Of a stretch of 12,717 nucleotides of DNA, positions 1-12,717 are shown piece by piece. The stretch is from Gammaproteobacteria bacterium HGW-Gammaproteobacteria-3. GTDB lineage: Bacteria > Pseudomonadota > Gammaproteobacteria > Methylococcales > Methylomonadaceae. Numbering within the stretch: the stretch's first letter is position 1; the number at the start of each line of letters is the position of its first letter. A program made the position numbers and the translations under genes. The stretch is from assembly GCA_002843155.1 (NCBI GenBank), contig PGZD01000079.1:1-12717 (forward strand), in the 5' to 3' direction. Under the pieces are notes generated by a model. The model worked only from the letters and a program-made list of their open reading frames with translations. It ran no database searches and was not told the origin of the DNA.

Positions 1-180
1 TACTATGTATTTCTTTTTCAATTGTGATACTTAATGTCGATGTAAAAATATAGCATATGGGGGCTATCATCCGACATATCAATGCTGACTGAGTACTAGG
101 AGCCTGTCGGACCTCCCAACGGCAAAGTCAGATATTTGGTAAAATAGCAGTCACCGCTGACACCCCCTTCAGGAAAACCC

Positions 181-520
181 ATGGCCCGATTCATCCAATA
201 CGACCGTAACCAATACTACCTGCTGCCGCCGTCGGTGGATGAATGGCTGCCCGAAGATCACTTCGCCCGGTACATCGTCGAAGTCATCGATCAACTGGGT
301 TTGTCGAAGCTGACCGGCCGCTATTCGCGCAGCGGTTCCGAGGCCTATCATCCGGCGTTGCTGCTGGCCTTATTGGTTTACGGCTATGCCACCGGCACCT
401 TCTCCAGTCGCAAAATAGAAATTGATTTTGTCGGTTTAACCGACCGAGTGCAATTTGACCACAGGCCCTGGAGTGCTTATAAAAACAGGATTGGCGACTT
501 GACGCAGTTGACGCCGGTTT
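181..520 (+). mobile_element. Truncated IS1182/IS5-superfamily transposase remnant; only the N-terminal InsH-like (DUF772) domain survives and no catalytic DDE region is present
   Basis: ORF 181..639 begins MARFIQYDRNQYYLLPPSVDEWLPEDHFARYIVEVIDQLGL...GSEAYHPALLLALLVYGYATGTFSSRKIE. This is the characteristic N-terminal signature of IS1182/IS5 transposases (YDRNQ..LLP, LPEDH.AR, YGY..G..SSRKIE). Recognisable similarity fades after about aa 80-110. The rest of the ORF is non-transposase sequence and overlaps the opposite-strand GGDEF gene. No DDE domain, second ORF or terminal inverted repeats were identified. Confidence 0.6.
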
Positions 521-2250
521 ATAAAAAAACTGTTGCCGTCGATTTTTTTGGCCAATTTTTTGGCTTCCGACGCCAGATCGGCTATCTCGACATGCGATTG
601 GCATTGGCTGGTTGCCAACGGGTCCACCAAACCCACTGACAGGCTCAGGAGCGGAAAAAAAACTGACTGGCCTTGCCGGTTTTCACTGGTAATGCCGCCC
701 GCTTTGACATCCGCCTCGTTATAAAAAGAAGGGGCGACGCTTTTGAATGTGTCCAGAATATCCTGGCAACGTTTCAGCCAATCCGGGCGGGTTAAAATGA
801 CAATGAAATCATCGCCGCCGATATGCCCGACTGTGCCAGATTCCGGCGTTATATGTTGGTTCAGCGTGTCGGCGACGGCTTTGATAATATCGTCACCGGC
901 GCTGTAACCGTAGGCATCGTTAAACGGCTTGAAGTGATCCAGATCAAAATAGGCGATGGCAAAAAAACTGTTCTGGTTGAGCAGTCTGTTGATCTTTTCA
1001 TTCATCGGCACATTGCCGGGCAGCAGGGTCAGCGGATTGGCGTGCTTGGCATTTTGAATCTGCTGGCGCGTTATTTCCTCAAGCAGGTCGAGCAAGGTGC
1101 CGACGCCTGCGTATTGGCCGTTATCGGTAATGATAAAAGCTTGATCGCTGCGTATGGCGGCAGTCACTTGTTGGCTGACTTTTTCCAGCGGCGTGTTGGC
1201 GTCAACCAGCAAGGGAGCGTGTTCAATAAATGATTTTATCGCCTGCTTACCGTACAACTCCAGACCATAACGGCTTGAAAACAGTTTGCTCAGGAATTTT
1301 TCGCGGCAAATAAGCCCTGTGGCCTTGCCGTTATCGACCAGCGGCTGGTTTTGTAATTGTGTGTTTTGATGAAACAGTGTCATGACGTCACTGATTGCAG
1401 TTTGTGCCGAAACCGGAACAATCCATTGGCTGATATCGGCTGCTATTTTGTTGTGTTGATCGATCTGCATTGTATGGGCTGAAACGAACAGGCCGGGACC
1501 GATTGTGGTCAGGGGCTGTGCAGCGGGCCTTGCAAAATAAAAACCCTGGGCGTGAGTGATGCCGAGTTTTTCAATGGCCTGGTATTCGGCCTTGATTTCG
1601 ATGCCTTCGGCAATCACTTTGCAGTTCATGGCTTGGGCGATGGCTTGAATGGAGCGGACAAAATTCAATTTGACCGGGTCTTGATGCAAACCCTGGATAA
1701 AATGTTTGTCGATTTTGACATAGTGGGGGCGTAGTTCGGACCAAAGTCTGAGGCCGGAATAACCGGCGCCCAAATCATCGAGTGCGATTTCAAATCCCAT
1801 ATTTTGGTAATGACTGACGGCTTCACGCATCAAATCGTAATCATCAGTGGGTTGATGTTCGGTGAGTTCGATAATGATGGAATGCGGGGCAATATTGAAT
1901 TGTTCAAGCAACCTCAGAGTTTCACCTTTTTTGAAGTCAGGCTCCAGCAGCACCGAAGGGCTGGCATTTAAAAATAATTTGGCGTCAAAGGCCAATTCGG
2001 CAAAGCGCTTGAGCGTGATTTCACGGCAAACGAACTCCAGTTTGGCTTGCAGGCCAAAGCGCCCGGCGGTATCGAAAAGATTGAACGGACTGTGCAGCGA
2101 GCTGTTTGAAGGGCCACGAATCAAAGCTTCATAACCGATGATTGTTTGTTGATGCAGCGAAATGACGGGTTGAAACACGGGCTTTAATAATTTACCATCA
2201 ATGATTCGAATCAACTCGTTATGTAAAGAAGTTATGTTCATTGGGGGCAA
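436..2250 (-). CDS. c-di-GMP turnover protein with N-terminal EAL phosphodiesterase domain, central CBS pair and C-terminal GGDEF domain (EAL-CBS-GGDEF)
   Basis: 604-aa ORF. The EAL domain carries YEALIR (nt about 2122-2130), DDLGAGYSG and EGIE motifs (aa about 25-245). The middle region (aa about 265-395) looks like CBS repeats. The GGDEF domain (aa about 415-578) carries FDLDHFKPFND and a variant active-site motif GGDDF (nt 805-819). The annotated start at 2250 is TTG; an in-frame ATG lies at 2241, and neither has a convincing SD. Confidence 0.9.
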   Translation of the reverse strand: MPPMNITSLHNELIRIIDGKLLKPVFQPVISLHQQTIIGYEALIRGPSNSSLHSPFNLFDTAGRFGLQAKLEFVCREITLKRFAELAFDAKLFLNASPSVLLEPDFKKGETLRLLEQFNIAPHSIIIELTEHQPTDDYDLMREAVSHYQNMGFEIALDDLGAGYSGLRLWSELRPHYVKIDKHFIQGLHQDPVKLNFVRSIQAIAQAMNCKVIAEGIEIKAEYQAIEKLGITHAQGFYFARPAAQPLTTIGPGLFVSAHTMQIDQHNKIAADISQWIVPVSAQTAISDVMTLFHQNTQLQNQPLVDNGKATGLICREKFLSKLFSSRYGLELYGKQAIKSFIEHAPLLVDANTPLEKVSQQVTAAIRSDQAFIITDNGQYAGVGTLLDLLEEITRQQIQNAKHANPLTLLPGNVPMNEKINRLLNQNSFFAIAYFDLDHFKPFNDAYGYSAGDDIIKAVADTLNQHITPESGTVGHIGGDDFIVILTRPDWLKRCQDILDTFKSVAPSFYNEADVKAGGITSENRQGQSVFFPLLSLSVGLVDPLATSQCQSHVEIADLASEAKKLAKKIDGNSFFINRRQLRQVANPVFISTPGPVVKLHSVG

Positions 2251-2366
2251 TCTATTAAAGTTTCAAGTTGTTAGAGCATAATATTTAAATGTTACACAAT
2301 AATTACAGACATAAGACGATTAAAGCTTTAGCCGGGTTGTCAACTGGGCCGATTGACCAGTAAGTT

Positions 2367-2395
2367 TTGCCTTATTCTTAAGTTAGCATTAAAAT
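2367..2395 (+). promoter_or_regulatory. Candidate sigma70-type promoter for the downstream six-gene operon: TTGCCT (-35, 2367-2372), 17-nt spacer, TAAAAT (-10, 2390-2395)
   Basis: Read directly in the AT-rich divergent intergenic region. The predicted transcription start near 2402 would give a 5' UTR of about 50 nt before the ATG at 2453. This is a sequence-pattern match only. Confidence 0.3.
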
Positions 2396-2452
2396 CAATC
2401 GCACTTAGACGGTAAGCAAAATAAACAAGCTGAATTGATAAGGCCGATAAAA

Positions 2453-4771
2453 ATGCCCGATACTTCTAAGAATAGTGGGGAAAACCGAGCGCCGATCCAG
2501 CTTGAATTGCTTGCGGCTAAAACCCGGCAGACGCTCAACTGCACGTTTAACCAGGCCTGTCGGCTGGGCAGTGCCAAGAGCAATGATGTTGTTATTGCCG
2601 GGGAAACCATTTCAGCCCATCACGCCAGAATTTTTGTCACCGACGATGGCGCTGTTTTCATTGGCGCCTGCGAGGGCGCCGCAGTTGCCGTCAACGGCAC
2701 GGTCGCCGATAAGCCTTTACTAGTAACCGCCGGCGATTGGGTGCTGTTGGGTTCCACTCCTTTCCAGGTCAAATTTAACAGCATCCCTCAGCCCCTTGTC
2801 GAGGTTGGTGACGCTTCTTCCCAACACATTGATTTATCGGGCAAGTCTGTATTGACCGTAGGTCGATTGCCGCAATGCGATATCGCCATCGCGTCGCCGC
2901 TGATTTCCCGTGAGCACGCCCGTTTGGTCAGGGCGGCGGACGGCTGGTTTATCGAAGATAGCGGCAGCACCAACGGCACTTTCCTCAATGCTGTGCGTGT
3001 TCTGGGCAGGCAAGCGCTAAAAGCCCATGATTGGCTAAGCTTTGCCGCTTTCGAGTATCAATTTGACGGACAGCGCATTATCCCCGGCAATCAAGCCGGG
3101 CAAGTCAATATCGAAGTGTATCGCTTGAGCAAAGAAGTCAGGGACGCATCGGGCCAAACCAAGCGCTTGCTCGATGATCTCAGTTTCGCCATCCGGCCGG
3201 GCGAATTTGTCGGCATTTTCGGCACCAGCGGTTCCGGTAAATCGACTTTGCTGGATGCCCTGAACGGCCGCCGCAGGGCTTCTTCCGGTGATATTTTATA
3301 CAACGGCACCGACTTGTATGGGGCTTTCGATCTGTTTCGCGCAGCCATCGGCTATGTGCCGCAACAAGACATTGTGCATCGTAAAATCATCATGCGCCAT
3401 GCCTTGAAATTTACCGCTAAATTGCGCTTGCCGCCGGACACTTCCGATGTCGAAATGGATGATAATGTGCTCAAGGTGCTGGAAAAAGTGGGGCTGGCAG
3501 AAAAAGCCTCATTGGCGGTGGACACACCTACGCCTTTGAGCGGTGGCCAGTTGAAGCGCGTCAGTCTGGCGGTGGAATTGGTCGCCAATCCCAATGTGCT
3601 GTTTTTGGATGAGGTAACCAGCGGCCTGGATGCCGGTACCGATAAAAAAATGATGCAACTGTTCCGGAGTCTGGCCGAAGACAAGAAAACCGTGATTTGC
3701 GTGACTCACACCCTGGAAAATATCGATACCTGTCATCTGGTGTTATTGCTGCATCAGGGGCGGCTGGTTTTTTTCGGCCCGCCGCAGGCCGTGGTCGGCT
3801 ATTTCGGCATGAAGCGTTTGTCCGATGTTTATGAACTGCTCGAAAGTCAGGTGGCTTCTTATTGGGCCGATAAATACCAGGCCTCCAGTTTTTATCACAC
3901 CTATGTCGCGCAGCGCTTGAACTTTTCCGGGCAGCGCACGGACGGCGCGACGCAAACAAACAGTGCACAACCGTCAGGCAAACCCGTTTCGCAAAGCTTG
4001 CGCCAGACCAGAACATTAATATTGCGTTATTGTGAGCTGATGCTGTCGGATCGAAAAAACCTGCTGATATTGGTATTGCAGGCGCCGTTGATTGCCCTGA
4101 TTATCGGTCTGGTGTTCGAAATGGACGCGCAATTGGCATTGCGGGCGGCCAAACAAAGTCAGATTCTCTTTATTCTGGTTTTATCGGCAATCTGGTTCGG
4201 ATGCCTGAATTCGGCGCGGGAACTGGTCAAGGAACTGCCGATTTATATCCGTGAACGCTCGGTCAATTTAGGTCTCGGGCCTTACATTGCCAGTAAACTG
4301 ATACCGTTATCGTTGCTTTGTTTACTGCAATGTCTATTATTGTTGGGTGTCATTGCCCTGTTGATCGACGTGCCGGGCAATTTTCCACAGCGCTTGTTGA
4401 TTTTGTTCGCATCGGGCATGGCGGCCACGACCATGGGTCTTTGCGTCAGCGCCTTTGTCAATTCCAATGACAAGGCCGTTGCCACCGTACCGATACTGCT
4501 GATTCCGCAGGTGATTCTGTCCGGCGCCGTGGTAACGCTTGAAGGCGCGGGGCTTTGGATAGCCAAGTTGAGCATGATTTCGTATTGGTCTTTTGATGCG
4601 ATGAAAGCGACGCTCAGCGAAGAAGTCAGAGCCGTCAAGGATTTTACCGGGAAAGCGCTGGTGCCCATTGCCGGAAGTTTTGGTCTGGATTTATTGGCGA
4701 TTGCCGCACTGGGGCTGTTTTTTCTGTTGGCAACAGGCATCGGGCTTAAACTCAAGGATACTAAAAAATGA
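2453..4771 (+). CDS. Tandem-FHA ABC transporter: two N-terminal FHA domains fused to an ABC ATPase (NBD) and a C-terminal ABC-2/ABCG-type six-helix membrane domain (half-transporter)
   Basis: FHA1 lies at about nt 2558-2776 (GETISAHHARIF...GDWVLLGSTPFQVKF). FHA2 lies at about nt 2850-3070 (LTVGRLPQCDIAIASPLISREHARL...GSTNGTFLN). Walker A GTSGSGKS is at 3221-3244. The ABC signature is LSGGQLKRVSLAVEL and Walker B is VLFLDEVTSGLD. A Ser/Thr-rich linker RTDGATQTNSAQPSGKPVSQS separates the NBD and TMD. Hydrophobic helices run from about nt 3990 to 4760. The probable start is ATG 2453 (AAGG 9 nt upstream); the track ORF begins at an in-frame TTG at 2435. Confidence 0.9.
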   Translation: MPDTSKNSGENRAPIQLELLAAKTRQTLNCTFNQACRLGSAKSNDVVIAGETISAHHARIFVTDDGAVFIGACEGAAVAVNGTVADKPLLVTAGDWVLLGSTPFQVKFNSIPQPLVEVGDASSQHIDLSGKSVLTVGRLPQCDIAIASPLISREHARLVRAADGWFIEDSGSTNGTFLNAVRVLGRQALKAHDWLSFAAFEYQFDGQRIIPGNQAGQVNIEVYRLSKEVRDASGQTKRLLDDLSFAIRPGEFVGIFGTSGSGKSTLLDALNGRRRASSGDILYNGTDLYGAFDLFRAAIGYVPQQDIVHRKIIMRHALKFTAKLRLPPDTSDVEMDDNVLKVLEKVGLAEKASLAVDTPTPLSGGQLKRVSLAVELVANPNVLFLDEVTSGLDAGTDKKMMQLFRSLAEDKKTVICVTHTLENIDTCHLVLLLHQGRLVFFGPPQAVVGYFGMKRLSDVYELLESQVASYWADKYQASSFYHTYVAQRLNFSGQRTDGATQTNSAQPSGKPVSQSLRQTRTLILRYCELMLSDRKNLLILVLQAPLIALIIGLVFEMDAQLALRAAKQSQILFILVLSAIWFGCLNSARELVKELPIYIRERSVNLGLGPYIASKLIPLSLLCLLQCLLLLGVIALLIDVPGNFPQRLLILFASGMAATTMGLCVSAFVNSNDKAVATVPILLIPQVILSGAVVTLEGAGLWIAKLSMISYWSFDAMKATLSEEVRAVKDFTGKALVPIAGSFGLDLLAIAALGLFFLLATGIGLKLKDTKK

Positions 4772-4793
4772 TGTGCAACGAGGCCGTGACAAG

Positions 4794-6338
4794 ATGAACG
4801 AAACCCTAGCGGAAGCCAGTCGCACCTGCCCTAAATGCGGCCATCGGGACGCGACCGAAAAAATAGAGGCGCATAAATACCGCTGTTCGGGATGTGAATA
4901 TGAAATGGCGCATATCGATACCGCGCCTAATGGCGCTATCCGGGGCATTTTCGGTTGGTTGAAAACGGTCGATGAGGTGATCGATTCACGTTATAAAATC
5001 CAGATGGTGCTGGGCAAAGGCGGGTTCGGCGCGACTTATCTGGTTGAAGATCAGCGCGTCAGCGGCAAACGCTGGGCGCTCAAGGAAATTCCGGAAATGC
5101 TCTTCGATGAATACGAAGTGTCGCTGCTGAGCGGCCTGGATCATCCTTCGATTCCGATTATCGTTGATCGTTTCAACGAAAATGGCATGGTGTATCTGGT
5201 ACTGAAATTCGGCGGCAGCCGCACGCTCGCCACGGAATGTAAACAACACAACAGAATCGTTTTTCCGAAGCTCAAAAACTGGGCTATCCAGATAGCCGAA
5301 GTGCTTGGCTATCTGCATTCACGAAATCCGCCGATCATTCACAGGGATTTAAAGCCGGAAAATGTCTTGCTCGATGATGAAGATCGCATCATGCTGATCG
5401 ATTTCGGTATCGCCAAGGAAGCATCACCTACCGAAATGACCCGCACATTAGGCCGCGCGGCTTCCATCGGCTTCAGTCCGCCGGAGCAGGTGATGGGCAC
5501 GGGCACCGACATACGCTCCGATATTTATTCCCTCGCGGCTACCGTTTATTTTGCCGCGACCGGCCAGACGCCTGTCGCCGCGCATGAACGTGTGTCCGGC
5601 AAAGCGCTGATAGAACCCAAACAGATTGCCACCGAATTACCCGATGCCGTCAATGCGATGCTGTTGAAAGGGCTCAACCTCAATGTCAACGAACGCCCGC
5701 AAACGGTTGCGGAATTTATCGGCGTTTTCAGTGATGACCTGCCGTCGGCGACTGAGGCGATGTTGTCCGGCAAAACCGTGCAAATCTCGGAGCTTCAATT
5801 CGGTCCGGTTATCAAGACGGCATTGAATCCTTCGACGCCGCTGACCCGGATGAATTCCGCCGCTGTCCACGCTGAAAAAAAAGCGGGTCTGAAGTTCGGT
5901 TTGATTATCGGAGCTGTTATGCTTCTGGCCGCTATGACTGGTGGCGCTTATTGGCTGTTAAATAAAGATGAAACGGCAACGCCACTGCAAGAGGTCGCCA
6001 GCCCGGAAGCGCAAACACCGCCCGTAAGCCCGGCGCAACCTCAACTGGCGACTGTTGACACGCAATCGCCCAAAGCCGCTGCAACGGGCGGGGACGGAGC
6101 GGATAACGCCGGACTCTCGGCCATGGACATTTTAAACAAGCGCAGACAAACGCAGGCGGAGCCGAAGCCGGAACCGGTGGTCAATAAAGCCGCGCAACAG
6201 CTCGATTCGACACGGACGGCACAAAAAACCGTAGTGCCGAAACCAAAATCCAAGCCTAAACCGGTCGCCAGAGCGAAGTCCAAGGAAGATAATTCAGGTT
6301 GGGTGATTATTCCGGGCCAAACCCAAAAAATACGCTGA
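4794..6338 (+). CDS. Hanks-type Ser/Thr protein kinase with N-terminal C4 zinc ribbon, single TM helix and Pro/Lys/Ala-rich low-complexity C-terminal tail
   Basis: The zinc ribbon is CPKCGH-x16-CSGCEY. Kinase motifs are the Gly loop GKGGFG, WALKEI (VAIK lysine), HRDLKPENVLL, DFG and SPPE (APE-like), spanning about nt 4990-5700. The hydrophobic segment LKFGLIIGAVMLLAAMTGGAYWLL is at about nt 5890-5960. The tail has PKPEP/KPKSKPKPVARAKSK repeats. The ATG at 4794 lies 22 nt after the upstream stop. The longer track ORF from 4668 overlaps the ABC gene and is rejected. Confidence 0.9.
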   Translation: MNETLAEASRTCPKCGHRDATEKIEAHKYRCSGCEYEMAHIDTAPNGAIRGIFGWLKTVDEVIDSRYKIQMVLGKGGFGATYLVEDQRVSGKRWALKEIPEMLFDEYEVSLLSGLDHPSIPIIVDRFNENGMVYLVLKFGGSRTLATECKQHNRIVFPKLKNWAIQIAEVLGYLHSRNPPIIHRDLKPENVLLDDEDRIMLIDFGIAKEASPTEMTRTLGRAASIGFSPPEQVMGTGTDIRSDIYSLAATVYFAATGQTPVAAHERVSGKALIEPKQIATELPDAVNAMLLKGLNLNVNERPQTVAEFIGVFSDDLPSATEAMLSGKTVQISELQFGPVIKTALNPSTPLTRMNSAAVHAEKKAGLKFGLIIGAVMLLAAMTGGAYWLLNKDETATPLQEVASPEAQTPPVSPAQPQLATVDTQSPKAAATGGDGADNAGLSAMDILNKRRQTQAEPKPEPVVNKAAQQLDSTRTAQKTVVPKPKSKPKPVARAKSKEDNSGWVIIPGQTQKIR

Positions 6339-6450
6339 GACACGATTTGGCGTTGGACCATCAAGGATTTAATGAATATCGGGGGCTGAAGTTTTCAAAC
6401 CCGATTTTCAGGGATGAAAGAACTTTTCAATAATTTAAGAGGGGGTTGTC

Positions 6451-7614
6451 ATGATTATGCGTTTCAAACAAAGGCTGTCGGCTGCAAATACAGGAGGCAG
6501 AGGAGTGGGCGCCGGGTTGTTGACGGTGCTGATTCTGGTTCAGGCCGTGCTGTTTTCGACGGCGGCGAATGCCGGAGGCTACGGCTCTGCGGCACTGGGC
6601 AGTTATGGGGTAAAAGTATACCGGGTCAATTCAGCCCTGTATCCTTTTGTCCAGCTTTATATCAGGACTTTCGATCAAAATATGCAGCCGTTGGTAAATC
6701 TCAACGAACTGAACATCGGTCTGATGATTAAAGGCAAGTCCTATGATCCGACTAAACGCCAATACGGCATTCAAACCTTGCGTCGGCGCAGTGAGGCGAC
6801 GCGTTCCGTATTGGTGCTCGATGCCAGTAAATCCATGGTGGGACCTGCGTTTGAAACGGCTTTGCGGGCGGCGGCCCGCTTTATCGACAGCAAGCGGCCA
6901 CAGGATGAAGTCGCGGTACTCGCCATTCGCGATACCAAGGAGGGCTATGAACTGGTGTCGGAATTCGAACGTGATAGCGGCGCTTTGGCAAGAAGGCTCG
7001 CCGATATTAAAGTCGATGGCATGAACAGCCGTATTTACGATTCCGTCGGAGCAAGCATACAAATGTGCGGCATGTCCTCGCAAGGTTCTTCCGTCGATCC
7101 TTCGGCCGATAATTTTATCGCCTCGTGTTCGATCGTGGTCTTTTCCGATGGTCGGGATGAGGGCAGTGCGCTGTCACGCGAAGAGCTGAATGCAAGGATT
7201 ACCGCGTTGCCGATTCCCGTTCCGGTTTATTCGCTGGCCTATGGCGCTAATTCCGTTCAATATTTCAGAAACCTGGAATCCATTTCCAAAAATTCATTCG
7301 GTATCTATTATTCGTTGGGTGAAACCTATGACCGAATGCAGCGTGTCGTCGAAGAAATCCAGAATATTCTGCAAAGCGACTATGTCGTGACTTTCCGTTC
7401 CTATCTTCCGGTTGACGGCGAGCAGCACGCTTTTAAAGTGGGCGTTGAATACCCCACCGGCAGCGGAAAATATTACTATGACAAAGGCGAATTCGAAGCG
7501 ATAGAGCCGCCGCCCATTCAAGCAATTGATAATGCCCTGCAACTGCTGGAACAAAAAATTCCGGCCTTAGCGGACAACGACCCCTATTACAAAAGACCGG
7601 CGCCGGGTCAATAG
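6451..7614 (+). CDS. Secreted von Willebrand factor type A (VWA) domain protein with intact MIDAS motif
   Basis: A strong RBS GAGGGGG lies 6 nt upstream of ATG 6451. The N-terminus MIMRFKQRLSAANTGGRGVGAGLLTVLILVQAVLFSTAANA is signal-peptide-like. The VWA fold spans about nt 6810-7240, with MIDAS D-A-S-K-S (LVLDASKSM) and downstream T and D (VVFSDGRDEG). The C-terminal region of about 120 aa has no obvious family. Confidence 0.85.
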   Translation: MIMRFKQRLSAANTGGRGVGAGLLTVLILVQAVLFSTAANAGGYGSAALGSYGVKVYRVNSALYPFVQLYIRTFDQNMQPLVNLNELNIGLMIKGKSYDPTKRQYGIQTLRRRSEATRSVLVLDASKSMVGPAFETALRAAARFIDSKRPQDEVAVLAIRDTKEGYELVSEFERDSGALARRLADIKVDGMNSRIYDSVGASIQMCGMSSQGSSVDPSADNFIASCSIVVFSDGRDEGSALSREELNARITALPIPVPVYSLAYGANSVQYFRNLESISKNSFGIYYSLGETYDRMQRVVEEIQNILQSDYVVTFRSYLPVDGEQHAFKVGVEYPTGSGKYYYDKGEFEAIEPPPIQAIDNALQLLEQKIPALADNDPYYKRPAPGQ

Positions 7615-7638
7615 TCTTAAACTAAGGAGAATGGGAAA

Positions 7639-8256
7639 ATGAATCAACAATTGGCAAGAACAACGGTGAGCGCGATCATTTGCGCGAGTTTGCTCACCGG
7701 TTGCGCAACTACACAGGAAAACCAGCAAGCCTGGGGAGCCGGGTTGGGCGCGATTACCGCCGGATTGGCCACGGGATTGGCCACCGGTAATGTCGGTTAC
7801 GGGATTGCCGCTGCGGTAGGCGGCGCGGCCATCGGATGGGGCGCGGTCAAGCTGGCGCAATATAACTCCGAACAGGTGCGCAGCGCTTCTCAGGACCAGG
7901 CCTTGTATGGTTTCACGCCTTCATCGAACGCGACGCTGGTCAAACTACACAAAGGTACGGCGTCTCCCGATACGGTAGCGCCCGGACAGCAGGTGCAAAT
8001 TGCCAGCGATTATTCGTTAGCGGTTCCTGAAGCTCAAAATATGACAGCGGTGCAGGAAAGCTGGACCCTAAAAAAAGATGGTCAAGTTCTTTTTCAGGCC
8101 GACCCGCAGAATGTACAGCGGACAGCCGGGGGGTATGCCGTCAATGCTACCATCCCGATACCCAAAAACGCTTCGGCCGGTACCTATGTCGTTGAAACCC
8201 GCGTGCAGGCAGGCACCAGCAGTGATTTCAACCAGGCCGTCTTTGTCGTTCAGTAA
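7639..8256 (+). CDS. Lipoprotein with N-terminal glycine-zipper region (SlyB/17-kDa-antigen-like) and a C-terminal beta-rich domain of unknown function
   Basis: RBS AAGGAG lies 9 nt upstream. The lipobox is LLTGC (SAIICASLLTGCATTQ). The glycine zipper is GAGLGAITAGLATGLATGNVGYGIAAAVGGAAIGWGAV. The gene is 24 nt downstream of the VWA gene. Confidence 0.8.
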   Translation: MNQQLARTTVSAIICASLLTGCATTQENQQAWGAGLGAITAGLATGLATGNVGYGIAAAVGGAAIGWGAVKLAQYNSEQVRSASQDQALYGFTPSSNATLVKLHKGTASPDTVAPGQQVQIASDYSLAVPEAQNMTAVQESWTLKKDGQVLFQADPQNVQRTAGGYAVNATIPIPKNASAGTYVVETRVQAGTSSDFNQAVFVVQ

Positions 8257-8260
8257 CAGG

Positions 8261-8959
8261 GTGTCGTCAGGCGGGCTATGCTTGATGGTCTGCGCATTCG
8301 GTTATGCCGAACCCGCAGACGCCATTTGCGCCGGTGAAGTCAGCCGGTCAATGGCCGCCGCCTTGCGCATTGAGCAGGAATGGCCATTGAGACCGAGTCA
8401 GGACAGTATCACCCGTTATTTGCAAAATCTGGGAGAGCGTTTGCTGCCTCGCGGCGGTTCCTGGTTAAAGTGGCTTAGGGCGGATGACTGGCCGGCTTCC
8501 GGCTGGTTTTTTTTTACCGTTAGGGATCGTGCGATCAATGCGTTTTCCATTGGCAACGGGCGCATTTATCTGACCGACGGCAGTTTTGATTTTGTCGATA
8601 ACGAAGCTGAATTGGCGGCTATCGTTGCTCATGAAATAGGGCATCAACTGGCCGGACATTTCTGCCAAGCCACGGACCGCACCGGTCGTGAACAAAATTC
8701 CCTGGGTTCTCTGGTGCAGGTTGTCGATATCGAAAAAGAAATGGAAGCCGATGCCATTGCGTTGAAACTTTTAAGTTCGGCCGGTTTCCCGCCGCAGGCC
8801 TTACTGAAAATCATCAGCCGCTTACCGCTGACCGGCAATAGCGCGCAGCAGCGTTTAAGATTGGATAAGTTAAACGAAAAACTGCAAGACGCAAATGTTT
8901 CGCCGCTATTTTCCAGTTCCCGGGTGTTTTTACAGCTCAAAAAGTCATTGCCTCGATAA
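8261..8959 (+). CDS. M48-family zinc metallopeptidase (HExxH plus E-x-EAD third ligand; BepA/YcaL/LoiP-like). Start uncertain
   Basis: Motifs are AIVAHEIGHQLAGH (HExxH) and EKEMEADAIALKLL (M48 EMEAD motif). Candidate starts are GTG 8261 (5 nt after the lipoprotein stop, suggesting translational coupling), TTG 8282 or ATG 8285. The track ORF from 8078 overlaps the lipoprotein gene in another frame and is rejected. The N-terminus (LCLMVCAFGYA) is only weakly signal-peptide-like. Confidence 0.75.
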   Translation: MSSGGLCLMVCAFGYAEPADAICAGEVSRSMAAALRIEQEWPLRPSQDSITRYLQNLGERLLPRGGSWLKWLRADDWPASGWFFFTVRDRAINAFSIGNGRIYLTDGSFDFVDNEAELAAIVAHEIGHQLAGHFCQATDRTGREQNSLGSLVQVVDIEKEMEADAIALKLLSSAGFPPQALLKIISRLPLTGNSAQQRLRLDKLNEKLQDANVSPLFSSSRVFLQLKKSLPR

Positions 8960-8978
8960 CATCAAGGCATGAGCGTTT

Positions 8979-9725
8979 ATGAAATTTAAATTTTTTAAAA
9001 GATCGAGTCAAAAATCATCCTGTCCACTTGTGCAAGTCAGCGCTCTTTCTCATCCGGGACGTGTCCGGGATAATAACGAAGACAGCTTTATACTGTTGCC
9101 CGATTGGGGAGTTTGGGCCATTGCCGACGGCATGGGCGGTCATCAGTGCGGCGAAGTCGCCAGCGCCATCGGCTTGATGGCCTTGCAGCGATCGCTCGTA
9201 GCCGGTGACAATCTGGTGCATTCGATACAAAATGCCCATCAGGCAATCAAAAAGCAAGCCGAGCAGGACACTACAAAAAGTGGCATGGGTACGACGCTGG
9301 TGGCGGTACAAATACACGGGGAAAGTTATCGGGTGGCTTGGGTCGGCGATAGCCGGGCCTATTTATGGCACAATGGCTTGAGGCAATTGACCCGGGATCA
9401 TAGCTATGTGCAAATGCTGCTGGAGCAAGGGCTGATCGATGAGGCCGACGTCCTGACACATCCTTATAAAAATGTCATCACGCAGGCTTTGGGTAGCCTG
9501 GATAAGGAGTCGGTTCAGGTCGAGACGATAGAGGAAAAATGGAAGTCAGGCGCTAACTTGCTGCTGTGCAGCGATGGCTTGAGCAGTCAGTTAAGCGACT
9601 CAGAGATTGCGGCCATTCTGGCAACGGATTGCTGTTTGGAGCAAAAAGCCGGGCAGCTTTTGACACGGGTCTTGGCTAACACGGCTGAAGATAATATCAC
9701 ACTGATCTTATTGGCCTTGCCATGA
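8979..9725 (+). CDS. PP2C-family Ser/Thr protein phosphatase (Stp/PrpC/PppA-like)
   Basis: Motifs are VSALSHPGRVRDNNEDSF, WAIADGMGGHQCGEVAS, GMGTTLVAV, VGDSRAYLW, NVITQALGS and LLCSDGLS, the canonical metal-binding Asp/Gly motifs of bacterial PP2C. The gene is 19 nt downstream of the M48 gene. Confidence 0.9.
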   Translation: MKFKFFKRSSQKSSCPLVQVSALSHPGRVRDNNEDSFILLPDWGVWAIADGMGGHQCGEVASAIGLMALQRSLVAGDNLVHSIQNAHQAIKKQAEQDTTKSGMGTTLVAVQIHGESYRVAWVGDSRAYLWHNGLRQLTRDHSYVQMLLEQGLIDEADVLTHPYKNVITQALGSLDKESVQVETIEEKWKSGANLLLCSDGLSSQLSDSEIAAILATDCCLEQKAGQLLTRVLANTAEDNITLILLALP

Positions 9726-9755
9726 GTCAAGCCGGACTACAAGGATGTTTTGCGT

Positions 9756-10682
9756 TTAAACACATTTCGATATATCCACGCCGGTTTTGTCCAACAGTTC
9801 CCGGCGTAGCTTTTCCGCTTCCGCCACTTTTTGCATCAAGTCCGGTTCCGGACAGTGTTTATCAGTGAAGCGTCTGATACCGCCCGTTTTTCTCTCGTTG
9901 ATAACTTCAACGATGGTCTTCCAGCCAATATCCTTATCATCATTGGCAAAAGCAAACACTAAAGCAAGATCGCATACATTGTTGATCAGTCTGGGTACAC
10001 CGGCGGTGTAATAAAAGATGGCGGCTGACGCCGATTTTTTAAAAATCGGTGTTTGTCTGCCGGCAATGCGCAGTCTGTGCTCGATGTATTGCTCGGTTTC
10101 TTCAAAATTAAGGGGCAAAAGATGATATTCAATGGAAATACGTTGGGCGAACTGTACGAGCTGAGGCTCGTTCAGTTTATCGACCAGTTCGGGTTGTCCG
10201 ACTAAAATCAACTGCAACAGTATTTCTTGCGTTACATTAATGTTGGAGAGCAGCCGGAGTTCTTCCAGTGTTTCGATTTCCATGTTCTGGGCTTCATCGA
10301 CGATCAGGACGACGCGGCGCTTTTTTTGACCTTGTTCGTGGAGAAATTTGACAAAGAGCTGATAACGTTCGGCTTTGTTATTAGTGTTGTGTTCAATATT
10401 GAAAGCCGCCAGAACCCAGGTCAGCAAGTCGCCAAAAGAGCTATGGGTGTTGGTAATGATGCCCACAGTGCACTGTTTTTCAATTTTGTTCAACATGCAG
10501 CGGATTAAAGTGGTCTTGCCTGAACCTATTTCACCGGTAATCACGGTAAAGCCTGCGTGGCTCATAAGTCCGTACTCCAGGGTGGTTAAAGCTTTTCTGT
10601 GTTTAGGGCTTAAAAATAAAAACTCCGGATCGGGAATCAGAGAAAAGGGCTTTTTTTTCAGTCCAAAGAATTGAGTGTACAT
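9756..10682 (-). CDS. ExeA/GspA-family AAA ATPase, short form with cytoplasmic ATPase domain only (MshM / PEP-CTERM-associated ATPase-like)
   Basis: Family signatures are MYTQFFGLKKKPFSLIPDPEFLFLSPKHRKAL, Walker A GEIGSGKTT, Walker B VVLIVDEAQN, ILVGQPEL and AGVPRLINNVCDLAL. No TM segment and no peptidoglycan-binding C-terminal domain are present. I prefer the ATG at 10682 (AAGAGA-like RBS upstream) over the track start at 10700. The gene converges on the PP2C gene across a 30-nt gap. Confidence 0.85.
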   Translation of the reverse strand: MYTQFFGLKKKPFSLIPDPEFLFLSPKHRKALTTLEYGLMSHAGFTVITGEIGSGKTTLIRCMLNKIEKQCTVGIITNTHSSFGDLLTWVLAAFNIEHNTNNKAERYQLFVKFLHEQGQKKRRVVLIVDEAQNMEIETLEELRLLSNINVTQEILLQLILVGQPELVDKLNEPQLVQFAQRISIEYHLLPLNFEETEQYIEHRLRIAGRQTPIFKKSASAAIFYYTAGVPRLINNVCDLALVFAFANDDKDIGWKTIVEVINERKTGGIRRFTDKHCPEPDLMQKVAEAEKLRRELLDKTGVDISKCV

Positions 10683-10934
10683 GCGTTTTTCTCTTACCAA
10701 CTGTGATGAATCATGGAAAAATGCTGATAGTCTATCGGTTAAGTTTTAACTGTTCCTGAATCGAACAGTAGATGATGAATGGAAACACACAGGAGTCCCA
10801 TGATTTTGAGTTAACAGCTTTTTCATTATAGCGTATTCAGTCAGGCCATGCCCTCAGGATAAGGTGTGATTTATGGGCTTAAAAGTGTTGCCATCTCATT
10901 TTTTAGCGCCTCAAGATACTGCAACCGGCAAAAA

Positions 10935-11588
10935 TCATCCAAAAAGTTGCTTTATCAGAGCAGTTACGCTTATCAGCAAATCCTGTTTAGTGTTGTCGAG
11001 TGCGTAGTTATTTTCATAGGTGGAAAAATCTATATTGGCCCGGCTTTGCTTTTTCTTTTTTTGGCTGTGTCGCCGTGCTTGTAATAATTGGCCGCCCGCT
11101 CTTTTCCATTCCATAAGATGAGTGATTTCACCGCTATCGAGCCAGATGCCATGCGCCGGACAACGGTCTATAATAACGCCGCTGCGGTGACCAAAATTAA
11201 TGCGGCTCATGAAGTTTTGGCATACCGGACATTTGATATACTTTGTTTTCTGCTGAGCCTGAAAACGGTCGGCATTGATGTTGACCAGATGTTTGCGGTT
11301 GATAGTGAACGTTGCAGCTACCGAACTTTCCAAAAACCGTTCTATTTCATCTGGATCAAAAAATAAACCGTAACAGCTCCCGCAGCGTTCGATCAAAAAT
11401 TCTTTTTGTGGATCGAGGCTGATAGTTTGTAAAGCTTCATCGCAATGCGGACAGATGCGATTTGAAGCATCGTTGTATAAAGCGTAATCGAACTTGCCGG
11501 TCAGATCAACATCATTGCGCACACCGCAATAACGACATCGATTGGTATTGGCTAAAAGTGGTGCGGAACAACTGTTGCAGCGCGCCAT
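10935..11588 (-). CDS. Zinc-ribbon protein with an N-terminal CxxC..CxxC pair and two zf-TFIIB-type modules (YdjG-like)
   Basis: The N-terminal ribbon is CNSC..CRYC. Module 1 is CPHC..CGSCYGLFFDPDEIE and module 2 is CPVC..IDRCPAHGIWLDSGEITHL, matching the zf-TFIIB pattern CPxC-x(15-20)-CxxCxGxWxDxGE. The C-terminus is basic (KKKKQSR). The start ATG at 11588 lies 3 nt after the stop of the upstream SPFH gene. Confidence 0.8.
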   Translation of the reverse strand: MARCNSCSAPLLANTNRCRYCGVRNDVDLTGKFDYALYNDASNRICPHCDEALQTISLDPQKEFLIERCGSCYGLFFDPDEIERFLESSVAATFTINRKHLVNINADRFQAQQKTKYIKCPVCQNFMSRINFGHRSGVIIDRCPAHGIWLDSGEITHLMEWKRAGGQLLQARRHSQKKKKQSRANIDFSTYENNYALDNTKQDLLISVTALIKQLFG

Positions 11589-11591
11589 GGC

Positions 11592-12605
11592 TCACCAACT
11601 GTCGAGGATGTTTTTTTTCCGGGCACTGTATTCATCAACGGTTATCAATCCGGCATCGTGCATTTTTTTCAATTCGAGCAGTTTTTTCATCAGATCGGTT
11701 GCCTCTTGTCTCGATTCGACCGAAATACCTTTGGATAAGGATTGCGCCATGCTTTGGCCCAAACCCATGCCGGCCCCCATGCCCATGCCTAAACCGGCGC
11801 CACCGCCTTCATTTCGAGCCGCTTCGAGCATTGCTTCAAGTTGCTGCAATTGGGCATAATTAATGCCAACGGCTTGAGCCGCCTGGGCTTCTGCGGTCAG
11901 GTCGGCGATGCGGTTAATGCGTCTTAAAGTATCATCGTCAAACTGGGTGCCTTCAATTCGAAAATCAGTCAGCTTAAAACCCAGCTCGTGAAAAACGCTG
12001 GACAGTTTGTTTTGCATACCGTGTCCGATTTCTTCACGGTTGGCGTCAATATCGGCATAGCTAAATTTATTTTCCGCAAGATAGTCAGCCAGCGGGTGTA
12101 GAATGCGCGCAGACATAATGTTGCGGAAATCTTCGTTATAAAAATCGTTTTGACTACCGACGATGTGGGTAAAAAAATTGATCGCATCCTGAATCCGGTA
12201 GCTGTAATTCCCGAATGCCTTTAAGCCTATGGGAAACCGGTATTTTGGGTCTTCATATTTTATGGTTGAGGTAGTACCCCATTTTTGATCAAGCTGCGTT
12301 GTTTTTTTGAAGAAATAAATGCCGACTTTATGTTCACTTTCAAAAAACTGCATGAATTTTTTGACCGTGGTCCAGAAGGGGATATTAGCCGTATTCAGCT
12401 CAATCAGACCTTCTTCCTGAAGCACGGCTTTTACCTCTCCTTCGTAAACGAAAATACAGCCCTGACCTGGACCTACAATCAGTTTGGAAGCGTTTTTGAT
12501 TTCATCGCCATTCTCCGTCCATCGCTGAAACAATGCGTCGGGATGCGGGCTATGCCATTCAATAACCGAACGAAGTTGTCGTTTGATGCCGTCAAAAAGC
12601 GCCAT
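11592..12605 (-). CDS. SPFH/Band_7_1-family protein with Gly/Met-rich linker and C-terminal SHOCT domain (YdjI-like)
   Basis: The N-terminus MALFDGIKRQLRSVIEWHSPHPDALFQRWTENGDEIKNASKLIVGPGQGCIFV matches the YdjI-type SPFH family signature (VIEW...D.LF.RW...EIKN.SKLIV.PGQ). The linker EGGGAGLGMGMGAGMGLGQS is at nt 11754-11810. The SHOCT-like tail is QEATDLMKKLLELKKMHDAGLITVDEYSARKKNIL. I prefer the ATG at 12605 (GAGG 7-8 nt upstream) over the track start at 12653. Confidence 0.85.
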   Translation of the reverse strand: MALFDGIKRQLRSVIEWHSPHPDALFQRWTENGDEIKNASKLIVGPGQGCIFVYEGEVKAVLQEEGLIELNTANIPFWTTVKKFMQFFESEHKVGIYFFKKTTQLDQKWGTTSTIKYEDPKYRFPIGLKAFGNYSYRIQDAINFFTHIVGSQNDFYNEDFRNIMSARILHPLADYLAENKFSYADIDANREEIGHGMQNKLSSVFHELGFKLTDFRIEGTQFDDDTLRRINRIADLTAEAQAAQAVGINYAQLQQLEAMLEAARNEGGGAGLGMGMGAGMGLGQSMAQSLSKGISVESRQEATDLMKKLLELKKMHDAGLITVDEYSARKKNILDSW

Positions 12606-12717
12606 GTTTAGCCTCGCTATTAAGTTGAATCGTACAGAGGCCATGCTGAGCAAAGGAATAGCCTCTCAAAAGAATTGGTTTTATAATGAAAAAAAGTATA
12701 GTCAAAATTTGCAGGAG

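Follow-up and report, generated by a model that had tools for sequence, protein, structure and literature searches.

A zinc-ribbon Hanks-type kinase with a disordered tail in a conserved six-gene envelope cassette of gamma- and betaproteobacteria

The kinase gene and its cassette

The window is the whole stretch of 12,717 nucleotides analysed here (contig PGZD01000079.1, positions 1 to 12,717 of the forward strand) from Gammaproteobacteria bacterium HGW-Gammaproteobacteria-3, a member of the Methylomonadaceae (GenBank assembly GCA_002843155.1). It encodes a Hanks-type Ser/Thr kinase that combines an N-terminal zinc ribbon with a single predicted transmembrane (TM) helix and a disordered C-terminal tail. 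The kinase gene is part of a six-gene cassette. Three short conserved motifs lie outside the kinase domain, and two of them track the neighbouring genes.

The kinase open reading frame (ORF) translates into 514 amino acids (aa) plus a stop codon. Its ATG at 4794 lies 22 nt past the stop codon of the upstream ABC exporter gene, with a GAGG about 10 nt 5' of the ATG. A longer version starting at TTG 4668 is unlikely, as it overlaps the upstream gene and the N-termini of homologues begin at the position of ATG 4794. An identical protein is already present in NCBI, annotated merely as a Ser/Thr kinase. The gene and its parts are the following.

4794..6338, forward strand: Ser/Thr kinase gene encoding the zinc ribbon, kinase domain, TM helix and disordered tail (514 aa)
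4818..4961, forward strand: N-terminal module, residues 9-56, with a C4 ribbon (C12, C15, C31, C34) and a beta-hairpin linker
4992..5723, forward strand: Hanks-type kinase domain, residues 67-310 (Pfam Pkinase; activation-loop Thr216/Thr218 conserved)
5769..5789, forward strand: juxtamembrane motif G-K-T328-V-Q-I-S, with T328 at least 90% conserved; candidate phospho-Thr docking site for the second FHA domain (FHA2) of the transporter
5883..5966, forward strand: single TM helix, residues ~364-391, from hydropathy and an AlphaFold2 (AF2) helix
5967..6335, forward strand: disordered and predicted periplasmic tail, residues 392-514, with no Pfam domain and low predicted local distance difference test (pLDDT) scores; includes a Pro/Lys-rich spacer, residues 480-497
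6111..6149, forward strand: mid-tail helix G-L-S-A-M-D-I-L-N-K-R-R-Q, residues 440-452; candidate ligand of the VWA protein
6294..6335, forward strand: C-terminal Trp peptide S-G-W-V-I-I-P-G-Q-T-Q-K-I-R, residues 501-514; candidate ligand of the lipoprotein/M48 module

The six cassette genes lie on the same strand with short gaps, in the order FHA2-ABC exporter, kinase, secreted VWA protein, Gly-zipper lipoprotein, BepA-like M48 protease and PP2C phosphatase. The five partners of the kinase are as follows.

2435..4771, forward strand: ABC exporter (Pfam FHA in two stretches, ABC_tran, ABC2_membrane); the true start may be ATG 2453
6451..7614, forward strand: secreted VWA protein (Pfam VWA_2) with a signal peptide and an intact metal-ion-dependent adhesion site (MIDAS), D-A-S-K-S, that is invariant in the alignment
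7639..8256, forward strand: lipoprotein with the lipobox L-L-T-G-C, a Gly-rich zipper-like segment and a beta-rich C-terminal domain
8261..8959, forward strand: M48 metalloprotease (Pfam Peptidase_M48) with HEIGH, KEMEAD and two invariant Cys; a minimal BepA-like protein without TPR
8979..9725, forward strand: PP2C Ser/Thr phosphatase (Stp1-like; Pfam PP2C) without a signal sequence, syntenic in full-cassette loci

The exporter has two N-terminal FHA domains, a nucleotide-binding domain (NBD) and an ABC-2 membrane domain, a TIGR00955-like layout of the ABCG type. FHA2, at residues ~125-215, is canonical, with the phospho-Thr-binding residues G-R, S-R-x-H and S-T-N-G-T invariant. FHA1 is degenerate and usually carries G-S where G-R is expected. 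The linker between the two is ~25 aa long and contains no conserved Thr in 11 orthologues.

A sequence search against PDB chains found nothing useful for the VWA protein or the lipoprotein. Orthologues of the lipoprotein match Gly-zipper_YMGG, but under the Pfam cut-off. The protease matches the NCBIfam BepA model with an E-value of 2.7e-15, far below the cut-off of that model, and its PDB matches are 3c37 and the BepA entries 6ait and 6sar. Its start is uncertain (GTG 8261, TTG 8282 or ATG 8285). The ORF as listed starts at ATG 8078 and shares 179 nt with the lipoprotein gene, in a different frame; one of the three later starts is likelier because orthologues begin just past the lipoprotein stop codon. 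An invariant Cys lies close to the start of the mature protease and may form a pair with another invariant one, in G-H-F-C. The phosphatase scores 213 bits against NCBIfam Stp1_PP2C_phos (cut-off 230). Two related loci, L015 (12539-13042) and L017 (16445-16768), encode a small DUF4359 protein directly before PP2C that is absent from the window, and both carry extra genes between M48 and PP2C.

The six genes occur in the same order in Methylomicrobium, Methylotuvimicrobium (including M. buryatense 5G), Nitrosomonas and several Methylococcaceae metagenome-assembled genomes (MAGs), some of which have a few genes inserted before PP2C. The synteny thus spans gamma- and betaproteobacterial loci, and the ABC exporter is syntenic in 15 of them. 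Across loci, the VWA protein (67-84% identity) and the ABC exporter (55-78%) are more conserved than the kinase (45-66%). Terminator-like sites are absent from the intergenic gaps of the cassette, and their total (13 found, 10.5 expected) is not above chance. The open-access papers we searched contain no description of the cassette or of a zinc-ribbon Hanks kinase family. The cassette is uncharacterised and is built from known parts: a Hanks kinase, a PP2C phosphatase and FHA signalling that are linked to an ABC exporter and to partners in the periplasm.

Zinc ribbon, catalytic core and tail

An earlier note on this DNA described a kinase with an N-terminal C4 ribbon, a canonical kinase domain, one TM helix and a low-complexity tail. 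All of these parts are present, as are the tail strings it quoted; the ribbon spacing it gave as x16 is x15. The window kinase contains five Cys, four of which make up CPKC-x15-CSGC (residues 12-34). Conservation of this quartet among orthologues, which the note had proposed to check, holds: C-x2-C-x15-C-x2-C occurs near the N-terminus in 119 of the 120 best homologues (43-100% identical to the window kinase), and the sole exception is N-terminally truncated. The four Cys are invariant in an alignment of 62 sequences with 44-72% identity, as are A39, H40, D42, R50 and G51, while E37, N46, G47 and F53-G-W-L56 are at least 90% conserved. Because these invariant and near-invariant residues extend beyond the Cys, the conserved unit is more than a ribbon by itself: it is a module of ~50 residues in which the ribbon is followed by a beta-hairpin linker. 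Ribbon and hairpin are modelled by AF2 with a pLDDT of ~94, equal to that of the kinase core, with strands at residues 9-11, 18-20 and 39-43.

The module matches no curated zinc-ribbon family above threshold; its only Pfam match is Cas12f1-like_TNB, with 20.3 bits against a cut-off of 26.3. A profile of the ribbon and linker found 106 matches among 1.84 billion representative proteins, 78 of them at E <= 1e-10. Almost all of these matches are N-terminal, in proteins of 440-760 aa, and the short matches seem to be fragments. Ten long members were scanned and all are kinases, so the module is specific to one modest kinase family of ~80-100 clusters. The periplasmic domains of these ten are DUF3300, DUF4384 or FGE-sulfatase, and PKD is found in other members. 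A fused VWA domain was sought in the ten and in the window kinase and was not found. By domain content, the ribbon-kinase part is a constant cytoplasmic chassis whose periplasmic region is exchangeable. Two further proteins, P0168 (4443 aa) and P0186 (559 aa), match the ribbon profile in eight stretches each; they are apparently built from repeats of a ribbon-like unit and have no relation to the kinase family.

Having a ribbon at the N-terminus is not in itself rare for a Hanks kinase, since ~9 of ~78 unrelated metagenomic kinases start with a shorter one (C-x2-C-x10-12-C-x2-C). This sample comes from a metagenome scan with generic kinase motifs as patterns, which gave 80 loci, only two of which (L019 and L020) are family members. 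The unrelated kinases of L024, L026, L032, L039, L047, L050, L070 and L073 are 25-31% identical and have a short ribbon from residue 3-10. The family-specific profile does not detect these short ribbons. Some homologue names at JGI already carry generic zinc-ribbon labels ("S27AE", "RpoP"). Together with the identical NCBI entry, this makes the "unusual architecture" of the earlier note an overstatement.

We suggest that the ribbon and hairpin linker form a fixed structural or regulatory cap or surface on the N-lobe of the kinase. The earlier note had suggested dimerisation or recruitment as candidate roles of the ribbon. The module is read as intrinsic to the kinase because it is kept whatever periplasmic region or neighbouring genes accompany it, and because it is modelled as rigidly as the kinase core.

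The catalytic core is that of an ordinary, PknB-like Hanks kinase and should be active, judging by its intact catalytic motifs. Residues 67-268 match Pfam Pkinase with an E-value of 5e-34 (118.3 bits, cut-off 31.7). The Gly loop at 73-82 (G74/G76/G77/G79), K97, the HRD at 183-185, N190, the DFG at 203-205 and the SPPE at 228-231 are invariant in the 62-homologue alignment. The nearest solved structures by sequence and fold (phmmer, Foldseek) are Staphylococcus aureus Stk1/PknB (9ymt, 4eqm) and Mycobacterium tuberculosis PknB and PknA, with Foldseek E-values of ~1e-15 to 1e-16. Against the Stk1/PknB PASTA-kinase family model NF033483, the protein scores 138.5 bits (cut-off 450) and only residues 61-319 match, and a Pfam scan of the window kinase gave no PASTA repeat match. 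Weak Pfam matches to TCAD9, APH and ABC1 cover only the catalytic loop or a low-complexity region and were taken as non-specific.

The protein has one hydrophobic segment, with a Kyte-Doolittle peak at residues 364-382 that is the sole window above 1.6. AF2 places the TM helix at 365-391 with a pLDDT of ~90, and the segment is found in ~110 of the 120 homologues. Over 109 homologues, the flanks of the helix average 2.35 Lys plus Arg on the N-terminal side versus 1.46 on the C-terminal side, with net charges of +1.65 versus -0.76. These flank charges, and the location of the ATP-dependent kinase domain on the N-terminal side of the helix, place the tail in the periplasm. By every available sequence criterion the protein is thus predicted to be N-in/C-out, in line with the placement of the tail outside the cytoplasm by the earlier note.

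The tail (residues 392-514, 123 aa) consists of 12% Pro, 10% Lys, 14% Ala and 10% Gln. A Pfam scan finds no domain in it, and its pLDDT is below 50 except in one short helix. The absence of a folded sensor domain was therefore correctly noted for this kinase, although other family members do carry periplasmic domains. The tail is disordered and enriched in Pro, Lys, Ala and Gln, but, contrary to the earlier note, it is not uniformly of low complexity and holds two conserved short motifs. As a rule of thumb, a fully extended chain covers ~3 Å per residue, and a fully extended tail of ~120 residues would be long enough to cross a periplasm. The Glu-Pro/Lys-Pro spacer of TonB spans the periplasm.

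Conserved motifs and the genes they accompany

The first motif outside the kinase domain is juxtamembrane, on the predicted cytoplasmic side of the membrane. It has the near-invariant family consensus [K/R]-T-V-x-[I/V/L] and reads K-T328-V-Q-I in the window. The second is a mid-tail island, P-S-A-[L/M]-[D/E]-I-L-N-x-[R/K]-R (SAMDILNKRR in the window), for which a simple pattern matches 69 of the 120 homologues. It contains the sole tail segment modelled as helical by AF2 (residues 443-452, pLDDT ~77), and this helix keeps an acidic residue (S-A-x-D/E-I-L).

The third motif is a C-terminal peptide with a Trp. A Trp is found within the last 16 residues of 103 of the 120 homologues, versus a Trp frequency of 0.46% in the rest of the tail. 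The peptide exists in three versions: W-x-I-[I/V]-P-G-x-x-x-K-x-x, as in the window (GWVIIPGQTQKIR); D-W-G-N-Q-x-x-G-S-F in a Nitrosomonas-type clade; and W-L-x-D-I-H-P-I-Q-V-K and relatives in a third clade. The tail peptides GLSAMDILNKRRQ and SGWVIIPGQTQKIR of the window are candidate ligands of the VWA protein, the lipoprotein and M48.

Six loci have no VWA gene. Five of them demonstrably lack the FHA-ABC gene, and the sixth has too little upstream sequence; none has a PP2C gene nearby. Only kinase, lipoprotein and M48 are left in L009, L011, L019 and the P0108 locus; in L099, a DUF3800 gene separates the kinase from the lipoprotein, and L100 retains the kinase only. In the clade of L009, L011 and L100, a putative outer-membrane beta-barrel gene lies just before the kinase (L009 2686-4047; L011 711-1565; L100 6525-7742). 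Both the L009 and the L011 product terminate in ...LKF, and that of L100 matches BBP2_2 weakly. An unannotated 408-aa gene of similar length occupies this position in the P0108 locus.

Small hidden Markov models (HMMs) of the juxtamembrane motif and of the mid-tail helix were scored on all kinases of known gene context. The juxtamembrane HMM gives 4.8-23 bits in 15 of 15 FHA-ABC loci, whereas none of the six reduced loci exceeds 2.2 bits. For the mid-tail helix, 12 of 14 VWA loci score 15-28 bits, and the helix is absent from all six loci without a VWA gene. The C-terminal Trp peptide is kept in all reduced loci, with a divergent version in L019. The compartments also match, as the juxtamembrane motif is predicted to be cytoplasmic like the FHA domains and the mid-tail helix to be periplasmic like the VWA protein.

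Two relatives that are 58% identical illustrate the contrast: P0110 comes from a full cassette and has both motifs, while P0090 comes from a reduced locus and has neither. They differ mostly in the juxtamembrane segment and the tail. Both motifs and both genes are nevertheless present in the window, whose kinase shares only 46% identity with P0110. The contrast is therefore not just a clade effect.

A possible relay across the envelope

We judge the arguments for and against to be evenly balanced on whether this active, bitopic PknB-like kinase is the signalling core of the conserved six-gene envelope cassette, with a trans-envelope relay as its mechanism. The kinase would autophosphorylate the juxtamembrane T328 in K-T-V-x-I/V/L, and the canonical FHA2 of the exporter would dock on pT328, so that kinase activity gates export. 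The PP2C phosphatase would reset the system. M. tuberculosis FHA domains, including those of Rv1747, favour a hydrophobic residue at pT+3 (PMC3138270), a preference that K-T328-V-Q-I fits and from which we propose the docking of FHA2 on T328.

On the other side of the membrane, the 123-aa disordered tail may act as a periplasm-spanning tether and not as a bulk polycation. The MIDAS metal of the VWA protein may plausibly be bound by the acidic residue of the mid-tail helix, and the C-terminal Trp peptide could bind the lipoprotein/M48 module at or near the outer membrane. The Trp peptide is the best candidate ligand or substrate of that pair because the pair remains in the minimal loci. Changes in the state of the envelope would then be relayed to the kinase through the tail. 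The binding of the tail to the adjacent VWA protein, suggested in the earlier note, thus gains indirect support from a conserved acidic helix that co-occurs with the VWA gene, and not from bulk charge. A role in envelope monitoring also fits the resemblance of cassette proteins to Gly-zipper lipoproteins (SlyB, YfgH) and BepA, which are envelope-stress and outer-membrane quality-control factors, with the reservation that the Gly-zipper matches of the lipoprotein are below threshold.

Several points weigh against this relay. Beyond anatomy, conservation, synteny and co-occurrence, the mechanism is what we infer, and its interactions are predicted. The ~20 loci are not phylogenetically independent, and the set lacking the motifs amounts to about two lineages, a clade with long N-termini and L019. 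Because the FHA-ABC, VWA and PP2C genes are gained and lost together, the assignment of motifs to partners follows from compartment logic and not from independent co-occurrence. L013 and L017 have the VWA gene and carry only a divergent S-S-A-[F/I]-x-E-L-[Q/K]-K-G-L, which neither the HMM nor the strict pattern scores. The L100 kinase has the Trp peptide but no lipoprotein or M48 gene within 9 kb. We place the lipoprotein in the outer membrane provisionally, from its lipobox and a Gly-zipper whose Pfam matches do not reach threshold, and the N-lobe cap proposed for the ribbon and hairpin derives from pLDDT and secondary structure.

Regulated proteolysis is an alternative that partly overlaps with the relay. 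The tail or its C-terminal peptide may be a substrate or pseudosubstrate of the co-encoded M48 protease, and cleavage may switch the kinase on or off, comparable to site-1 cleavage of anti-sigma factors. In its favour, the minimal conserved core includes the M48 gene along with those for the kinase and the lipoprotein. HExxH and the Glu motif downstream of it are both preserved in the protease, which is related to the periplasmic quality-control protease BepA, and the disordered chain of the kinase ends in the conserved peptide. There is, however, no known cleavage site or processed form, conservation of the peptide fits plain docking equally well, and the L100 kinase has the peptide with no M48 gene nearby. 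We consider this explanation rather unlikely.

It is less probable again that the protein is an ordinary PknB-like kinase whose tail is a mere spacer, with peptides that reflect shared ancestry or self-association and with functionally unrelated neighbours. Many bacterial Hanks kinases have short or disordered ectodomains, and the interactions between motifs and partners are predictions here. This explanation does not sit well with six-gene synteny that spans two proteobacterial classes at kinase identities down to ~45%, or with motifs that disappear precisely together with the partner genes in a close relative and persist in distant relatives that have the genes.

The earlier note proposed that the tail is a polycation, that is, a bulk Pro/Lys polymer that binds peptidoglycan or polyanionic envelope polymers electrostatically and needs no specific docking motifs. 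We regard this as improbable and at best weakly supported. The patch PKPKSKPKPVARAKSK in the window tail has a net charge of +6 over 32 residues, and the ~43 residues before the C-terminal peptide are usually basic across homologues (median +5, lower quartile +3). The whole tail, however, has a median net charge of only +1 (range -11 to +11), and 36 of 107 tails are at or below zero. Composition also varies widely, from 1 to 16% Lys and from 2 to 31% Pro; 35 members have a Pro-rich pre-terminal segment, with at least 20% Pro, and in 16 it is rich in Glu, Arg, Lys and Ala with less than 10% Pro. What is conserved is two short peptides and not the composition. The pattern fits a spacer of conserved physical character that joins conserved peptides better than it fits a generic polycation. 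The Nitrosomonas kinase tails of L004, L006 and L008 have a spacer rich in Glu, Arg, Lys and Ala between the mid-tail helix and the C-terminal peptide (e.g., EEKLKAEAAARRDRAEREKKLTEERARAAEREKARAAA). This spacer resembles a charged single alpha-helix and stands in place of the Pro/Lys spacer of the window.

VWA, PP2C and Ser/Thr kinase genes are also co-encoded in the TerY-P triad, in which the kinase carries a zinc ribbon (PMC10542128), and in the Deinococcus radiodurans operon DRA0331-0334 (VWA-kinase-FHA-PP2C), which has an FHA reader. Despite this common parts list, and although the kinase domain matches the defence-system kinase models mad6 and PD-T4-6 as any Hanks kinase would, a TerY-P-like cytoplasmic stress or anti-phage switch is very improbable: PADLOC gives the VWA protein no match and PP2C one weak match that is not to a TerY model, on which we rejected membership in TerY-P or a defence system; a signal peptide is present on the VWA protein; the kinase has its ribbon at the N-terminal and not the C-terminal end, and its C-terminus is predicted to be periplasmic; the remaining cassette genes encode envelope proteins (lipoprotein, BepA-like protease, ABC exporter); and no nuclease or restriction genes lie nearby in any locus examined.

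For the relay itself, the closest transporter layout is that of M. tuberculosis Rv1747, which also has two FHA domains, an NBD and an ABC-2 membrane domain and is encoded beside a bitopic PknB-like kinase, PknF. Unlike the exporter of the window, Rv1747 is phosphorylated on Thr150 and Thr208 in an inter-FHA linker of ~100 aa, whereas the linker here is ~25 aa and FHA1 is degenerate. The mycobacterial operon furthermore lacks VWA, lipoprotein, M48 and PP2C genes, and the host of the window is diderm. To our knowledge, PknF has no zinc ribbon.

The component classes correspond almost one to one, at class level only, to the threonine-phosphorylation pathway made up of TagQRST, PpkA, Fha1 and PppA in the Pseudomonas aeruginosa H1 type VI secretion system (T6SS). 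Shared classes are a bitopic Hanks kinase, a periplasmic VWA module, a PP2C phosphatase, an FHA reader, an ABC-type inner-membrane complex, an outer-membrane lipoprotein and a periplasmic partner. The TagQRST-PpkA pathway senses envelope damage, and the signal it reads is stated to be unknown (PMC7817224). PpkA carries a VWA domain fused to the kinase (PMC1262709), whereas the VWA protein of the cassette is separate and secreted, and the FHA domains here are fused to the ABC protein. The cassette also adds the M48 protease and the N-terminal zinc ribbon. No T6SS genes occur among the called neighbours within ~10 kb in any locus examined.

Like the kinase, GltJ and ZitP are bitopic in the inner membrane, begin with a C4 ribbon and have a flexible periplasmic region besides their single TM helix. 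The ribbon of GltJ serves as a module for protein-protein switching and recruitment (PMC11135422). GltJ lacks a kinase domain, and its ribbon Cys are spaced differently (C5, C8, C28, C31). The sole NCBIfam match to GltJ is weak (E 1.2e-4) and covers the TM helix and a low-complexity, Pro-rich region; we take it as non-specific and see GltJ as an analogy of design, not as a homologue.

Tentatively, we speculate that the cassette represents a T6SS-independent pathway of trans-envelope threonine phosphorylation. Its tail would be a tether or ruler with separate plug-in peptides for the MIDAS of the VWA protein and for the outer-membrane lipoprotein and BepA-like protease, and a juxtamembrane pThr plug would recruit the FHA domain of an ABCG-type exporter. 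The state of the outer membrane would gate export, and the peptides would be gained and lost with the partner genes. How Hanks kinases without a folded ectodomain sense signals is poorly understood, and this family could be a compact, testable model: it offers three short peptides, predicted partners next door, natural minus variants and relatives in cultured Methylotuvimicrobium and Nitrosomonas. If the assignments are true, short linear motifs in a disordered tail can connect a kinase with proteins of the periplasm and the outer membrane, and FHA-gated ABC export, known from M. tuberculosis Rv1747, also exists in diderm bacteria. If they fail, the gene is one more annotated PknB-like kinase.

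Other genes occur around the cassette. Large HSP70-like proteins (N-terminus GIDLGTTHTVVA...) are encoded a few kb upstream of it in several Methylococcales loci, at the following positions.

L001, 1639-4410: HSP70-like protein
L003, 1559-4381: HSP70-like protein
L010, 404-3181, reverse strand: HSP70-like protein
L010, 4237-6264, reverse strand: HSP70-like protein

Downstream of the cassette and on the opposite strand, the window encodes an SPFH protein (Band_7_1 and SHOCT; 11592-12653, reverse strand) beside a CxxC-ribbon-repeat protein (10935-11588, reverse strand) with two Zn_ribbon_TFIIB stretches. A similar pair lies upstream and on the same strand in Methylotuvimicrobium (L001 4898-5995 and 6315-7505; L003 4589-5749 and 6105-7274). 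The SPFH proteins are ~30% identical between loci, and the ribbon-repeat proteins have no mutual match at E 1e-6.

The cassette of the window is flanked by an EAL-CBS-GGDEF protein (436-2250, reverse strand). EAL and/or GGDEF genes also flank three other loci, all on the reverse strand (L001 15623-17680; L002 15329-17386; L015 17250-17753). Their positions differ and they are ~27-34% identical, which may be chance as such genes are abundant. An AAA_22 ATPase (9756-10700, reverse strand) scores 299.5 bits against TIGR03015, the XrtA/PEP-CTERM-associated ATPase, just under the cut-off of 324.5. The GC content drops to ~0.43 over 10.0-11.5 kb of the window, compared with ~0.52 in the cassette.

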